Below the pieces are notes generated by a model. It was not told where the DNA came from, searched no databases, and was given only the letters and a program-made list of their open reading frames with translations. A stretch of 64,000 nt of DNA from Gemmatimonadota bacterium (GTDB lineage: Bacteria > Gemmatimonadota > Gemmatimonadetes > Gemmatimonadales > GWC2-71-9), in assembly GCA_039591075.1 (NCBI GenBank), contig JBDHEI010000008.1:15984-79983 (forward strand), in the 5' to 3' direction. Both the position numbers and the translations under genes were made by a program. Shown piece by piece: positions 1 through 18,550 of this stretch. Each line of letters starts with the position of its first letter. Position 1 is the stretch's first letter.

Positions 1-1269
1 CGCGAGCAGGTTGAGGTACCTGACCATGGCCTGGGCGGAGTCGAGCAGCCCTTCGTCCATGTTCACGTCTATCATCTGCGCGCCGCCCGCGACCTGCTCC
101 CGCGCAACTTCCAGGGCCGTTGTGTAGTCGCCATCGCGGATCAGCCGAGCGAAGCGGGTGGAGCCAGTGACGTTGGTTCGCTCCCCGACGTTGACGAACA
201 GGGTATCGGGACGGATCACTAACGGGTCGATGCCCGACAGGTGCATATACGGCTCGAGCGTCGGGATGGGGCGTGGGGCAAGCGTCTGCACAGCGTGAGC
301 GATGGCGGTGATGTGGTCCGGGGTGGTGCCGCAACAGCCACCCACGATGTTCACCAGGCCGCTCTCGGCGAACTCCGCAACGATTGTCGCCATCTCGTTG
401 GCCGACTGATCATATTCGCCGAACTCGTTCGGCAACCCGGCATTGGGATGACAGCTGATCAAGGTGTCGGCTACCGACGCCAACTCGGCGATGTGCGGCC
501 TGAGCTCGGCGGCGCCAAGCGCGCAGTTGAGTCCAACGCTGAACAGGTCGGCGTGGCTTACCGAAATCCAGAACGCTTCCGGGGTCTGCCCCGAGAGCGT
601 GCGGCCGCTCCGATCGGTGATGGTACCGGACACCATGATCGGCACGTCCTCCGCCCGCTCGTCGAGCAGCTCTCGGATCGCGAAGAGCGCTGCCTTGGCG
701 TTCAGCGTGTCGAACACCGTTTCGACCATGAGTACGTCCGCTCCTCCGTCGAGGAGCGCGGTGGCCTGCTCGCGGTACACCCGTGCCAGGTCGTCGAACG
801 TGACCGCGCGGGCCCCCGGATCGGCCACTGATGGCGACATCGAGGCAGTGCGGTTGGTGGGTCCCAAGACGCCTGCCACAAAGCGCGGGCGCGACGGATC
901 CCGGTCAGTGATGCTGTCTGCAGCGCTCCGCGCGAGACGAGCGGCCTCGAGATTGATGTCCCGCACCGCGCTCTCGAGCCGATAATCGGCCTGGGAGATC
1001 GCGTTGGCGTTGAAGGTGTTGGTCTCGACGATGTCCGCACCCGCCTCGAGATAGGCCCGGTGGATGGACTCGATCACGTCGGGTCGGGTGAGACTCAGCA
1101 GGTCGTTGTTGCCCGACAGTGGGACGGGATGGGTGCTGAACACGTCACCGCGGAAATCGGCTTCACTCAACCGATGCGCCTGGATCATGGTGCCCATGGC
1201 GCCGTCGAGGACGAGGATTCGCTCGCGGGCAACCTCGCTCAGGCGTCTGATTCGCGATGCGGGTGTCAT
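1..1269 (-). CDS. metH: Cobalamin-dependent methionine synthase, 5' part (runs off the window)
   Basis: Manual translation from ATG 1269: [30 protein letters not shown], later GGCCGT and [11 protein letters not shown] motifs. Absent from the ORF track because its stop lies outside the window. Confidence 0.97.
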
Positions 1270-1405: not shown

Positions 1406-1470
1406 ATTCGATTGTCCCCACAATCTACTGCGGTCCCGTCCCCGGCGCTATCCGGGGGATGAATCACCGC

Positions 1471-1788
1471 TCACATGACGCCAAGACGGCGCAGCACCTC
1501 CGCCCGCCGGACGCCCGCAATGGTGACTCGCTTGCGTCGGCTCCCGTGGCCCGCGACGATTCGCACCGCCGCTCGCGGCACCCCAACCCGCTGTGCCAGA
1601 AAATCGATGAGCGCCTGGTTCGCTGCTCCGTCGACCGGCGGGGCCGAGAGCCTGACCTTGATGGCATCACCGTGCCAGCCACTCACCTCTGTCTCGCGGG
1701 CACGGGCCTGCACGTGGAGGCAGAGCGTGACCTGGCCTACGTCGTCAGCCGTGGTCTCGCCGCCATCCGCATCGTCTCGCACGGTCAC
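1471..1788 (-). CDS. DUF167 / YggU family protein
   Basis: KVRLSAPPVDGAANQALIDFLA...GHGSRRKRV motif; adjacent to yggT. Confidence 0.9.
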   Translation of the reverse strand: MTVRDDADGGETTADDVGQVTLCLHVQARARETEVSGWHGDAIKVRLSAPPVDGAANQALIDFLAQRVGVPRAAVRIVAGHGSRRKRVTIAGVRRAEVLRRLGVM

Positions 1789-1807
1789 CGCTTCTCCGGG
1801 CTCAACG

Positions 1808-2371
1808 TCACAGAAGCCCGAGGATCATTCCCCTCAGCAGGAGGATCAGGAACCACGCAATGATGGGTGTGATGTCAATCATGCCCAGCGGCGGCACGAC
1901 CCGCTGCAGCGGTTTCACGATCCAGTCGGTGAGTGCGTAGAACGGACGCATCCAGCGGTGGAACGGTCCGAGCCCCAACCACGAACCGACGACCCGAACG
2001 ATGAGGGCAATCAGCAGGATCCCAGACGCGTAGTAGACCACGAGTCCAATCAGGCCGCTCACGCCTTGCTCCGCGGCGCGGGCCGTCCGGCGGACCGTCA
2101 TCGCGACCCAGTCCGTGGCCGTGATGACCAGGATCCCGCCGACCACGCTGATGCCGAGTAGCCACCACCCTGCCTGCTGGGGGTTACCGCCGCGTTTGAG
2201 GAGATACGACTCCAGCGGTTGAAGCACCGGGTCCGAAACCTTGCGAACCAGTTGGCCCGTCCGACCAAACGGGTTGATGCGCCGGGTCCGGACAGCCCAC
2301 GAACCGGCGGCGACCGCGCCGCTGAACACGAAGACTCCGAAGACGGCGTACCTGATCAGATCGAATACCAC
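1808..2371 (-). CDS. YggT family membrane protein
   Basis: Two YGGT-like repeats, e.g. LTDWIVKPLQRVVPPLGMIDITPIIA. Start moved to GTG 2371. Confidence 0.88.
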   Translation of the reverse strand: MVFDLIRYAVFGVFVFSGAVAAGSWAVRTRRINPFGRTGQLVRKVSDPVLQPLESYLLKRGGNPQQAGWWLLGISVVGGILVITATDWVAMTVRRTARAAEQGVSGLIGLVVYYASGILLIALIVRVVGSWLGLGPFHRWMRPFYALTDWIVKPLQRVVPPLGMIDITPIIAWFLILLLRGMILGLL

Positions 2372-4393: not shown

Positions 4394-8020
<3,627 letters not shown>

Positions 8021-13997: not shown

Positions 13998-14191
13998 CTG
14001 CAGAGTCCGGCCGACGCGATGGTCGGAACGCGAACCTTTCCTTTCTGGAAGTCCCAAGCCCCCCTCATCCCCACCCGGTGCTGCAGCGAGGTGCCTGAAA
14101 TGTAATAGGGTCTATCGGTTACGGCGTTTCGCGCCGGTTGGGGGCCGGCCGGGAGATTGGACTGGGGGAAGGCGGCAGACCGAGCGAGGAA

Positions 14192-14223
14192 TTGAAAATC
14201 TATATGATTATCATATATATGTT
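14192..14223 (+). promoter_or_regulatory. AT-rich promoter with palindromic operator
   Basis: TTGAAA at 14192, then TATATGAT-T-ATCATATA (14201-14217), just before ATG 14228. Confidence 0.6.
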
Positions 14224-14227
14224 ATTC

Positions 14228-14719
14228 ATGACACTCGGTCAGTTTGCCGTTGCGGTCGGCGCACCAGCGCGCTGGGTCCAGAACGCGTATCAGGCGCTGG
14301 GCATACCGGCGCGATACACGGAGGATCTTGCTCGGCGTCTGAGCTTTGCCCGCACGGTGAAGGCTGCGTGTGGGATGTCGCTGCGGCAGGCGTTCCCGCT
14401 GGCGGAGGAGGCGCTGGCCCGGTGGCCGCAGCATCGTACGTGGGAGCTCGCCGGCCCGGATGGCGTCGTCCGCATGACCCTCGATCTGGAGCGGTTCCTG
14501 TCCGACTGTACCGTGCGACTGTCGCTCGCGCGATGCTGGTATGCCGAAAAGCGGCGAGGGCGACCACCGAAAAAGCGCCGGCGCGGCATCGCGTGGGCCA
14601 AGTGGTACGGCGTGGACATTTCGCTCCTCGAGGCGTCGTTACGGTTGACGCCCGAGCAGCGGCTCAAGCGATTGGATGAGGCGGTGGAGTTCTTCCGCAA
14701 GGCGCGCATTCTCCGATGA
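14228..14719 (+). CDS. Hypothetical protein, putative HTH/antitoxin-like
   Basis: HTH-like N-terminus MTLGQFAVAVGAPARWVQN; C-terminus VDISLLEASLRLTPEQRL; ATGA overlap with the next gene. Confidence 0.6.
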   Translation: MTLGQFAVAVGAPARWVQNAYQALGIPARYTEDLARRLSFARTVKAACGMSLRQAFPLAEEALARWPQHRTWELAGPDGVVRMTLDLERFLSDCTVRLSLARCWYAEKRRGRPPKKRRRGIAWAKWYGVDISLLEASLRLTPEQRLKRLDEAVEFFRKARILR

Positions 14720-15204
14720 CGCTGTTCCAGTCCCAGATCGATGCGCTGGTGAGAGCGCCTGTCCGGTTCGTGGTTGTCGGGGGCGTGGCGGCTGGGCTGC
14801 ACGGGATGGCGCGTGCGACCTTCGACCTCGATATCTGCTATGACCCGGCACCGGATAATCGCGGGCGCCTTGCGGCCGTGCTCGCGGAGTGGAACGCCTA
14901 TCTCCGCGGTGTGGAAGCCGACTTGCCCTTTGTCATGGATGCCCGGCAGCTCGAGATCTCGCCGGTGATGACACTCGCGACGTCGTTGGGGGATCTCGAC
15001 GTCATGGACCGCGTTGAGGGGGTAGGGGACTTCACAGCTGTGCTCGCGAATTCGGTCGAGACAATCGTTGGTGATACACGATTCCGGATTCTGGACCTTC
15101 CCGCGCTGATCAAGGCCAAGCGTGCGGCGAACCGCCAGAAAGACCGCGGGCAGCTGCCGGAGCTGGAGGCGTTGTTGGAAATGAGAGGGCAGATGAACGG
15201 TTAG
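14716..15204 (+). CDS. Pol-beta superfamily small nucleotidyltransferase
   Basis: VVGGVAAGLHG...RATFDLD (GG...DxD) and LIKAKRAANRQKD. Confidence 0.85.
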   Translation: MTLFQSQIDALVRAPVRFVVVGGVAAGLHGMARATFDLDICYDPAPDNRGRLAAVLAEWNAYLRGVEADLPFVMDARQLEISPVMTLATSLGDLDVMDRVEGVGDFTAVLANSVETIVGDTRFRILDLPALIKAKRAANRQKDRGQLPELEALLEMRGQMNG

Positions 15205-15228
15205 GCGGTTGAGCGGTTAGGCGGTTAG
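15196..15228. repeat. Left octamer array / inverted-repeat arm
   Basis: aacggtta ggcggttg agcggtta ggcggtta g. Confidence 0.9.
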
Positions 15229-15290
15229 ATGGTACCGCGGGCGCGGATTTGCATGACACCCGTCAAGCACTGGCGGTCATGTTTCCAGTC

Positions 15291-15668
15291 ATGGCGCCGT
15301 ACGAGCGATTCGAAGCCTTCCGCCTCTGTCACGAGCTCGCACTGATCGTCTATCGGGAGACGACGTTCTTTCCGAAGGCTGAGCAGTACGGTCTGACGTC
15401 ACAGGCTCGAAGAGCCGCATTCTCGGCCGCCGCCAACATCGTCGAGGGATCAGTGAAGCGGGGCGCAGCTGAATTCCGCCGCTATCTGGACATCTCCCTC
15501 GCATCATTGGCCGAGTTGGGTTACGTCATTCGCCTCGCGCACGAGCTCAGTTTGCTGGATGGCGACCAATTTGGGCAAATCGGTGCCGCCCATACTGAAG
15601 CGAGCAAGGCAACCTGGGGTCTCTACGCCTCGATGCGCCGCCAGTCGGCCCAGAAGCCGACCGCCTAA
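15291..15668 (+). CDS. Four-helix-bundle protein (23S rRNA IVP / Avd-like family)
   Basis: FPKAEQYGLTSQARRAAFSAAANIVEG...FRRYLDISLASLAEL signature. Confidence 0.92.
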   Translation: MAPYERFEAFRLCHELALIVYRETTFFPKAEQYGLTSQARRAAFSAAANIVEGSVKRGAAEFRRYLDISLASLAELGYVIRLAHELSLLDGDQFGQIGAAHTEASKATWGLYASMRRQSAQKPTA

Positions 15669-15724
15669 CCGCTCAACCGCCTAACCGTTAAACCGCTCAA
15701 CGGCCTAACCGCCTACCCGCCTAC
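15660..15724. repeat. Right octamer array, 8 units of CCGCCTAA-like sequence
   Basis: ccgcctaa ccgctcaa ccgcctaa ccgttaaa ccgctcaa cggcctaa ccgcctac ccgcctac. Confidence 0.92.
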
Positions 15725-17062
15725 TCTCCTCGTCTTCCGCTTCATGAAGTCCATGAGGATGTACTGACCCAGCGTCATGGTGTTGGTGAAGTAGGCCTTC
15801 CCGCGGCTGATCTCGCACACCTCTTTGACGAACTCCACCAGCATTCGCTCGCGCGCGAGCATGAAAGTGTTGATCATGATCCCCGCTCGCTTGCAGGCGG
15901 ACACCTCGCGAAACGTCTCCCGCAGGATCCGAGGATCGAGGCCCACGGAGTTCACGTACACCCGGCCGTCCGGTAAGGTGAGCGCCGACGGCTTGCCGTC
16001 GGTGATCATGATGATCTGCCGCATGTCCTTCTTCTGCGACAAGAGGATGCGACGGGAGAGCTTGAGTCCCTCGGCGGTGTTGGTGTGGTACGGGCCCACC
16101 TGTGCTTCGGCGAGCCGCCCGAGCGGGATCTCTTCGGCGGTGTCGTGAAACAGCACGACGCGGATCGAGTCGCCGGGGAATTGCGTACCGATGAGGTGCG
16201 ACAGCGCGAGGGCAACCTTCTTGGCAGGGGTGAAGCGGTCCTCCCCGTAGAGAATCATCGAGTGCGAGCAATCGAGCAGGAGCACGGTGGCCGCGCTCGA
16301 GCGATACTCGCTCTGGTGGACCATGAGGTCGGGGTAGTCGAGATCGAGGAAAGGCGGTTCGGCGGTTGACCGGTCGAGCGGATTGGTGTTCCCGACCGCC
16401 CGACCGCTGGACCGCCCGACCGCCTTCTTCAACGTCTCCGGCACGTCGATGTTCATCGTGTCGCCGAACTCGTACGGCTTGGAGGCCGCTTCGGCTTCGA
16501 CCCCGGTGGCGAGGTGCGGGGTGTCATGCGCACCGAAGCTCGACTTGCCGATACTGCCCAGCAGGTCGCGTAACGCTCGGTAACCGAGGAAGTCCAGGCC
16601 CTTGCCGGTGAGGCTGAACTGCACCTGCTGCGCCGCCGACTGGGCCTGCCCGCCCGGGCCGAACATGGGCTGGTGTCCCTCGGGCATCTGCGGGGTCTCC
16701 TGCACGTTGAGGTAACCCTGCTCGATGAGCTTCTGCACGATCTGGTCGATCAAGTCCGCGAGCTGCTGCTGGATCTCGGCGTCTCGTGCTTCGTCACCCG
16801 ATGACTCGCCCCGCAGCACCTGGAGCATCTCCGGCGTGAGCTTGCCCGAATCCACGAGGGCCTGGATGATCGCCGCCTTGAGGGCCTCCAGCGATCGATC
16901 GCCGTCGTCGTGCTCGCCGAACTCTCCCCAGAACGGGTGATACATCGACCCGCCGGCGAACCCCGACTGCAGCAGGAAATCGCTCAGCTGGTCGAGCAGG
17001 TCTTCGAGGTTGACCGCATCGAGCAGCTCGGGGATGTACTTGGAGTACGTCGTGTAGCGCAT
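15713..17062 (-). CDS. VWA domain protein, likely partner of the AAA+ ATPase
   Basis: MIDAS motif [11 protein letters not shown] and ITDGKPS. Start ATG 17062 (MRYTTYSKY). Confidence 0.9.
16353..16424. repeat. In-frame 72-bp element of inverted degenerate octamers inside the VWA gene
   Basis: ggcggttc ggcggttg accggtcg agcggatt ... cgaccgcc cgaccgct ggaccgcc cgaccgcc. Confidence 0.75.
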
Positions 17063-17082
17063 GGAGTCTGCCTTCTCACGCT

Positions 17083-17153
17083 CAGCGCACAGTGCACAGC
17101 GCACAGCGCACCGGCGTGGGTCTTCTGAAACGTGAACGGTGAAAGGTGAAAAG
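17083..17153. repeat. Two intergenic heptamer arrays
   Basis: CAG(C/T)GCA x4 at 17083-17110 and TGAAAGG-like x4 at 17126-17153. Confidence 0.8.
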
Positions 17154-18494: not shown

Positions 18495-18550
18495 CCGCCT
18501 AACCGCCTAACCGCCTAACCGCCTAACCGCCTAACCGCCTAACCGCCTAC
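18495..18550. repeat. Octamer tandem array (CCGCCTAA)x6 plus one variant
   Basis: Six perfect copies at 18495-18542, then ccgcctac. Confidence 0.97.

Follow-up and report, generated by a model that had tools for sequence, protein, structure and literature searches.

The stretch of DNA analysed here (the window, 64,000 nt, whose own numbering is used throughout) comes from contig JBDHEI010000008.1 of a Gemmatimonadota bacterium and carries a small gene for a protein of the four-helix-bundle (4HB) family, PF05635 / TIGR02436, enclosed by two inverted arrays of tandem octamers. We are confident that this locus is a chromosomal member of the class that also comprises the 23S rRNA intervening sequences (IVS) with an open reading frame (ORF), placed here between two protein genes, and that framing by such arrays is the normal state of the 4HB family. 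The genome carrying the window cassette, called G000, comprises 3.83 Mb in 133 contigs, has 66% G+C and is 95% complete. It was compared with the sister species G001-G008.

The left arm (15196-15228, plus strand) is a G-rich tandem array of about four octamers of the type TTAGGCGG / TTGAGCGG, and the right arm (15660-15724, plus strand) is a C-rich array of eight units of the ACCGCCTA type. Tandem Repeats Finder assigned period 8 to both, with 3.9 copies at 15198-15228 and 8.0 copies at 15660-15723. The string test showed that the perfect 30-nt arm at 15196-15225 is the exact reverse complement of 15660-15689, and the repeat search extended the inverted pair to 37 nt at 92% complementarity (15189-15225 / 15660-15696), leaving 434 nt between the arms. 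Measured from arm to arm, the element has 494 nt. It holds a 62-nt leader (15229-15290, plus strand), which reaches from the left array to the start codon, and the 4HB gene itself (15291-15668, plus strand; 125 aa). The arrays supply stop codons: the TAA of the 4HB gene (15666-15668) lies within the first unit of the right arm, and the TAG of the upstream neighbour (15202-15204) in the first octamer of the left arm. The perfect 30-bp inverted repeat of octamers around one 125-aa 4HB gene, as reported in a preliminary description of this DNA, was confirmed by the string test, the repeat finder and the family matches given below. The same description had noted the lack of a transposase, and the Pfam scan of the four ORFs at the locus indeed returned no transposase-like and no recombinase domain.

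We scored the framing by local alignment of the 300 nt upstream of a gene with the reverse complement of the 300 nt downstream, using 34 as the threshold. The window locus scored 48. None of 1500 random 420-nt segments of the G000 genome reached 34, and the highest of them scored 32.

All three PF05635 genes of G000 lie between inverted short-period arrays, and each has a different unit: TTAGGCGG in the window cassette, GGGAAGC in the cassette termed C24 and TACGCGG/TGCGCGG in the one termed C92. This genome has 191 arrays of period 7 or 8, among which are 31 adjacent pairs that run from a G-rich to a C-rich array. Three of these pairs, with gaps of 431, 438 and 450 nt, coincide exactly with the three 4HB genes, and 15 of the 31 are short-loop hairpins with gaps of 1-26 nt. 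PF05635 was matched in 36 of the 41 genomes searched, G000 included. Among relatives of the same order, 26 of 30 best-hit loci scored at least 34 (25 of 29 without L025, a positive locus from the unpublished genome G021), and none of the 58 pseudo-gene control positions in the relatives' loci did so. The misses were L013, which lies at a contig end with a 71-nt flank, L016 (score 20), L030 (19) and L031 (32). At four or more loci (L017, L021, L028 and L033 at least) the arms were long inverted repeats without a periodic look.

The framing was also seen outside this order. The wide scan used an alignment of seven proteins and one genome per species, and returned 80 loci from Acidobacteriota, Planctomycetota, several proteobacterial classes, Cyanobacteria, Chloroflexota, Bacteroidota and Nitrospirota, as well as from a Ruminococcus metagenome-assembled genome (MAG), a Patescibacteria MAG and one archaeal MAG; Gemmatimonadaceae MAGs were among the outside matches of the relatives' proteins. 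The threshold was reached by 46 of the 75 loci with full flanks (48 of all 80) and by 4 of 106 control positions, whose maximum was 66. When all copies were scored in five distant genomes (Thiohalocapsa halophila, a Phormidium, a Desulfobacca MAG, a Ruminococcus MAG and Adhaeretor mobilis), 17 of 22 reached it, and within a genome each copy had its own unit. We then pooled the flanks of 131 loci, five of them fetched twice. The best array had period 7 (178) or 8 (30) in 208 of 256 flanks, compared with 16 of 206 control segments taken 850-1100 nt away, and the median copy number was 4.4 (interquartile range 3.7-5.4). The polarity was mostly the same as in the window, with a G-rich upstream arm in 94 of 105 cases and a C-rich downstream arm in 92 of 106. 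Matched inverted arrays around other 4HB genes, which the preliminary description had foreseen, are thus present in the host genome, in its relatives, across the wide scan and among the distant copies.

The window protein matched PF05635 (23S_rRNA_IVP) with an E value of 7.5e-24 and 84.4 bits (cut-off 33.8), and TIGR02436 ('four helix bundle protein') with an E value of 3.9e-23 and 81.7 bits (cut-off 24). Its closest solved structure, judged by sequence similarity, is XCC0516 (PDB 2GSC, E 2.1e-17), a family member whose four-helix bundles form a homopentamer. The 125-aa reading from the ATG at 15291 is backed by three sister-species orthologues, all of which start with MAPYERF or MAPFERF. To our knowledge, PF05635/TIGR02436 proteins have no known function outside diversity-generating retroelements. 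The conserved stripe of the family is GxxRxxxSxxxNxxE, according to the part of PMC3936711 that was available. The window protein carries it as RxxxSxxxNxxEG with the first G replaced by Q, and Q, N, E, S and E are invariant across 29 relatives. Compared with the orthologues of G001-G003, the protein is 92-96% identical in amino acids with a dN/dS of 0.02-0.05, synonymous sites being near saturation. These values indicate strong purifying selection.

Comparison of the sister species revealed that the orientation of the module changes. At the window site of G003, where the flanks are 90-93% identical, and of G002, the segment from arm to arm is inverted with respect to its two flanks. Its breakpoints fall inside the arms, and the 62-nt leader travels with the gene. 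G001 has the orientation of G000 but is without window positions ~14132-15125. Since G000 and G003 are the closest pair and yet have opposite orientations, at least two inversions are required at this site. To judge from the conservation of its orthologues, the window protein is functional in both orientations. No cassette is present in G004-G008, where the gene for the vWA-domain protein that follows the window cassette has other neighbours; short C-rich octamer-like runs persist at its stop.

The C24 site varies further. Its 4HB gene has the G000 orientation in G001, G002, G003 and G007 and is inverted in G004 and G006. No 4HB gene is found there in G005, which has inverted arrays around an ORF-less spacer of ~150 nt, or in G008, where a short-loop hairpin is found. 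The unit changes from species to species (GGGAAGC, GGGAAAA, GGGGAAA, GGGATAA, and the GGGTGCA type in G001), and the opposite arm always mirrors it. The C24-site proteins are 49-75% identical, far more diverged than those of the window site, and form one clade in the genus tree (support 96/98), in which the rate of evolution at C24 is about ten times that of the window site. The G000 copy (L002, G000:C24:26553-29864, gene near 1463-1824, minus strand) has an in-frame TAA, and the G006 orthologue is frameshifted. DNA inversion, envisaged in the preliminary description, is thus seen between species at both the window and the C24 sites, and the gene-less orthologous sites it also envisaged exist as ORF-less versions at one of them (C24, in G005 and G008). 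As a separate observation at the C24 site, a TATATT motif is kept between the right arm and the start of the downstream gene in three species (L002 ~1945-1965; L131, L130).

At the C92 site, G005 shares both flanks with G000 and likewise has a 4HB gene between them. The two proteins are not sisters, that of G005 falling in the C24-site clade and that of G000 being sister to a G008 copy. The approximately unbiased (AU) test rejected joining them (p 6e-5), for a group named after the tree was seen. Homology between the two species at this site ends at the start and stop codons of the neighbours, which are the outer ends of the arrays, and therefore the whole module, arms and gene together, was replaced. 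It was also observed that G005 has the ORF-less array pair at its C24 site (L130) and a protein of the C24 clade at its C92 site (L224/L140, G005:C16), a pattern that could be the relocation of a module.

The preliminary description took the gene and its arrays for a possible mobile cassette. Gene and arrays do form a real unit, but active mobility is not supported: the window module persists at the same site across four species, within-genome 4HB paralogues are at most 82% identical in nucleotides, site orthologues are monophyletic in the genus tree, and replacement is seen at a single site, C92. Recent transposition was considered and rejected, as no near-identical paralogues were present within genomes.

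How the arms and the protein might work together can be proposed by analogy with Avd, a member of the same fold family. The two arms would pair into a periodic stem, either in the transcript or in single-stranded DNA. This stem would be the binding site of a pentameric 4HB protein, with about one protomer per repeat unit, as Avd grips the stem-loop of its own element. The putative ligand is (UUAGGCGG)4-5, its complement or the paired stem, as RNA or DNA. Through this binding the protein would determine what becomes of the module's own RNA, and possibly of array hairpins elsewhere in the genome. The inversions would be a by-product of recombination between the arms, which may occasionally flip the module, delete its interior or exchange the module. 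Taken as a whole, with the identity of the module and the stem-binding mechanism together, we consider this explanation somewhat probable. The stem-and-binding part by itself is tentative. It is consistent with the predicted RNA fold of 15180-15735, where the arms pair in both the minimum-energy and the centroid structures (-233.5 kcal/mol, z -2.74).

Array hairpins occur in transcribed regions of this genome as well. At L208 (G000:C7:63800-65000) there are seven same-strand tRNA genes (Arg, Pro, Arg, Val, Met, Gly, Ala), and their spacers of 45-79 nt are filled by inverted octamer arrays of the TAGGACGG / TACCGTCC type in the form of short-loop hairpins. Such hairpins are therefore tolerated inside transcribed spacers.

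Several results weigh against the proposed explanation. The agreement of 4-5 repeat units with five protomers may be no more than numerology. The consensus of units across loci is weak, nT[CA][GA]GGn, with 4.18 bits compared with ~3.5 for shuffled units. The arm mismatches of 85 loci comprise 91 that are G-U-compatible in the sense strand and 103 that are antisense-compatible (p 0.43). There is no G-U excess in the sense strand, and therefore selection for a sense-strand RNA stem is not visible. RNase III was not found in the 95% complete G000 genome by PF14622, PF00636, TIGR02191 or tblastn with the enzyme of a relative, and the sole weak match is antisense to a peptidase gene. Across G000 and 40 relatives, PF14622 matched one of the 41 genomes, on a 1.5-kb contig, and several of these genomes are 98-100% complete. 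If true, the lack of RNase III from these genomes would be unusual for bacteria. The sigma-70-like promoter scan of 14600-16000 gave no match, though the promoters of this phylum may differ. Selection in both orientations means that the gene may be transcribed from inside the leader, which would leave the 5' arm outside its mRNA. Finally, the RNA contigs of public runs (Logan) do not cover the cassette.

The Logan contigs over the cassette region break at the arms. Some contain 'skip' joints (15226 to 15655 and similar), which we considered as possible traces of an empty site, of inversion or of expression. They were rejected, because the sides of these joints are 27-33 nt inside the arrays with other letters between them, and they therefore derive from other short-loop hairpins or from other organisms. 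No Rfam family matched 15000-15900 at E values up to 1.

The specificity of the arms for each other also counts against the explanation. The preliminary description held that the two arms are matched beyond the octamer they share, and this did not hold up. The (CGGTNNNN)n arrays of at least three units number 88 in the G000 genome and 2 in a block-shuffled copy of it. G000 contains 14 copies of the arm's 28-nt core, the full 30-mer being unique to the window pair. In a matrix of the 14 inverted octamer pairs of this genome, own arms averaged 18.5 and cross-locus arms 14.9. The window cassette's own pairing scored 30, and 3 of 26 cross-locus combinations equalled or exceeded it, the best with 36. 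Within the octamer family of G000, the locus specificity of the window arms is therefore weak.

The abundance of the arrays leads to the main rival, which we regard as unlikely: a mobile system resembling REP/RAYT, where the 4HB protein would spread or maintain the arrays, the arrays would be its cis-sites and the short-loop hairpins would be ORF-less derivatives. The window unit is the commonest array family in G000 (47+13 of the 144 period-7/8 arrays with at least 3.5 copies), and the C24 unit, AAGCGGG, is the third commonest (10). Octamer-array matches number 86 in G000, 103 in G003, 74 in G002 and 43 in G001, which carry the cassette at the window site, compared with 2-11 in the five species without it. 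The Desulfobacca MAG (G043) has 148 matches, at many sites, to the CCAGTAG unit of two of its cassettes. Five PF05635-rich relatives (272 kb sampled) had 55 arrays and 12 inverted pairs, and five relatives without a match (312 kb) had 14 arrays and no pair. The replacement of the whole module at the C92 site would fit as well. However, the genomes are related and these counts are not independent, and two of the five PF05635-rich relatives had no pair in a sample that is small and noisy. The TAGGCTG unit of Adhaeretor, whose genome (G045) is complete, is virtually confined to its cassette, with 4 matches, and the Thiohalocapsa unit (G041) stands at ~5 sites. Modules that keep the same site across species, with monophyletic site orthologues, also speak against it, and the divergence of the paralogues means that there are no recent copies. 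Moreover, we know of no nuclease or recombinase chemistry in the 4HB family.

It is improbable that the locus is strictly an element of the rRNA-IVS type, whose stem would serve only for cutting by RNase III, leaving the flanking transcripts intact, and whose protein would be dispensable cargo. The stem is a perfect duplex of 30 bp, as such an element would have, and a case of insertion between cmr3 and cmr2 has been published (PMC3936711, in the part available). Nevertheless, the missing RNase III, the single PF14622 match among the 41 genomes and the absence of a wobble signature in the arm mismatches argue against it, as does the strong purifying selection indicated for the protein, which would make it not expendable. 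A pure RNase III-excision reading fits the G000 lineage poorly. Still less credible, and in our view very improbable, is a programmed invertible switch (inverton) that toggles the 4HB gene or its neighbours within a population. Close species do differ in orientation at two sites, and the breakpoints lie in the arms. Perfect inverted repeats of 30-60 bp can, however, recombine over evolutionary time without a dedicated enzyme, no recombinase domain was found in the four scanned ORFs, and mixed orientation within one sample was not seen in data consisting of contigs that break at the arms. That the arrays are ordinary intergenic filler, with a small gene lying between two of them by coincidence, we regard as scarcely credible: arrays are common in G000 and often overlap the stop codons of neighbouring genes, yet neither the random segments nor the pseudo-gene positions reached the threshold, all three copies in G000 are framed and the arrangement recurs across phyla.

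The cassette is preceded by a 162-aa nucleotidyltransferase-like ORF (14716-15204, plus strand), for which Atlas gave the lead DUF2204/DUF6036 with a score of 0.97 and which had no Pfam or NCBIfam match. With a 193-aa ORF for which no family was found, it forms a two-ORF module at 14138-15204 (Atlas lead for the 162-aa ORF here DUF2204/DUF6036/AbiEii, 0.97), possibly an accessory toxin-antitoxin-like pair. The convergent neighbour on the other side encodes a vWA-domain protein (15713-17062, minus strand). Its stop codon (15713-15715) is inside the right array, and its start near 17062 is placed from the end of conservation. Within the vWA coding region, at 16355-16430, two octamer-like arrays (CGGTTCGG... 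/ ...CCGACCGC) form an inverted pair that is in frame. These arrays are stop-free because C or G takes the place of the A of the intergenic units. The window has further arrays at 7774-7808 (GGGCGGTT x4.4), at 17079-17151 between the vWA and transporter genes (CGCACAG x4.7 beside TGAAAGG x3.7) and at 18495-18549 (perfect CCGCCTAA x6.9).

Some array pairs enclose no 4HB gene. At G000:C24:53679-54215, a G-rich and then a C-rich array lie 486 nt apart, near the size of a cassette. Their units, GGGACGC and ACCCTGC, are non-complementary, and no PF05635 match was found. Inverted CCAGTAG arrays in the Desulfobacca MAG (G043:C7:78-168, plus strand, and 531-593, minus strand) are separated by ~370 nt that contain no PF05635 match, and may be a degenerate module or carry another cargo. 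We also considered larger array pairs of G000 as modules with other cargo and rejected them. The pair at C37:18815-19930 encloses an ordinary ORF of ~325 aa, and one of its ends carries a short hairpin of its own, and the C4 and C119 pairs have spacers of 83 and 147 nt with no convincing ORF.

The locus resembles several known systems. REP/RAYT (REPIN) elements likewise have a single gene between inverted copies of a repeat that also stands at scattered places of the genome, and the same repeat forms ORF-less hairpin doublets. Unlike these, the window protein is a 4HB protein and not a Y1 HUH transposase, PF05635 being the only Pfam family it matched. The window repeats are tandem arrays rather than one palindrome, and the scattering of units is not universal among 4HB carriers.

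A second likeness is to orphan arrays. Cyanobacterial short tandemly repeated repetitive (STRR) sequences are comparable short-period intergenic arrays. Others have been described in Xanthomonas (GGGAATC arrays, with 70-75 convergent pairs reported; Rehm 2015, PMC4692102), in Geobacter (paired sites of 4x octamers / 5x heptamers; Aklujkar 2009, PMC2700814) and in Beggiatoaceae (TAACTGA arrays; MacGregor 2015, PMC4679880). As far as the available parts of these papers show, the arrays are intergenic, have a 7-8-nt unit in about four or more copies and often form convergent pairs, as in the window. Those parts of PMC4692102, PMC4679880 and PMC2700814 do not mention a 4HB or IVS protein; 4HB genes with paired arrays on either side may already stand in the supplementary gene lists for Geobacter and Xanthomonas. 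The available part of Zhang and Ye 2013 (PMC3936711) places 23S_rRNA_IVP genes inside cas loci and does not mention repeats. In a search that left most subscription journals and supplements outside, we found no statement linking non-rRNA PF05635 genes to framing inverted tandem arrays.

These likenesses allow a wider proposal, which we put forward as doubtful. PF05635 proteins would be the dedicated partners of 7-8-nt tandem arrays across bacteria, each of their genes would lie within an inverted array pair of its own, and the pentamer would read the repeats with about one protomer per unit. The module would flip, decay to hairpins and be exchanged at fixed intergenic sites. The orphan arrays of cyanobacteria, Xanthomonas, Geobacter and Beggiatoaceae would be targets or remnants, and the rRNA intervening sequences would be copies that landed in rRNA. 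PF05635/TIGR02436 is very widespread and has solved structures, and the presence of 7-8-nt tandem arrays in many bacterial genomes has long lacked an explanation. Should family and arrays belong together, the protein would gain a nucleic-acid ligand and the repeats a protein, and the ORF-bearing rRNA intervening sequences would be one landing place of a much larger class. The framing rule is simple enough for automatic annotation, and cultivable carriers exist, among them the non-pathogenic Thiohalocapsa halophila DSM 6210 and Adhaeretor mobilis HG15A2.

Avd, of the same fold family, offers a parallel in binding. Its pentamer contacts an 11-bp stem-loop of its own element's RNA with all five protomers, and flipped-out bases sit in the crevices between protomers (10.1101/2023.10.23.563531, available in part). 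The window protein differs from Avd in scoring 16.6 bits with the equivalog model NF033474, below its cut-off of 80. Reverse transcriptase (PF00078) was not matched anywhere in the G000 genome, hence the gene has no reverse transcriptase beside it. The sequence read at the locus gave no sign of template or variable repeats, for which no dedicated search was made.

The closest architecture is that of the ORF-bearing 23S rRNA IVS of Coxiella and Leptospira, as far as these are described in the sources available in part. They share with the window element a length of ~430-500 nt, a terminal stem of ~28-30 bp, a PF05635 (S23p) ORF in the loop and tandem 7-nt repeats on the 5' side. The Coxiella element has 428 nt, a 28-bp terminal stem, an S23p ORF and 2-3 tandem GACAGAT heptamers at its 5' end, and it is cut by RNase III within the stem (PMC4990558, in the part available). 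These elements lie in helix 45 of 23S rRNA, whereas the window element lies between protein genes. Its arms consist wholly of tandem octamers, unlike theirs, and no RNase III gene was detected in its genome, unlike in the rRNA setting. The same part of PMC4990558 argues that the Coxiella protein is decaying and not expressed, in contrast to the strongly conserved window protein. The likeness to a 23S rRNA intervening sequence, drawn in the preliminary description, thus holds for the architecture.

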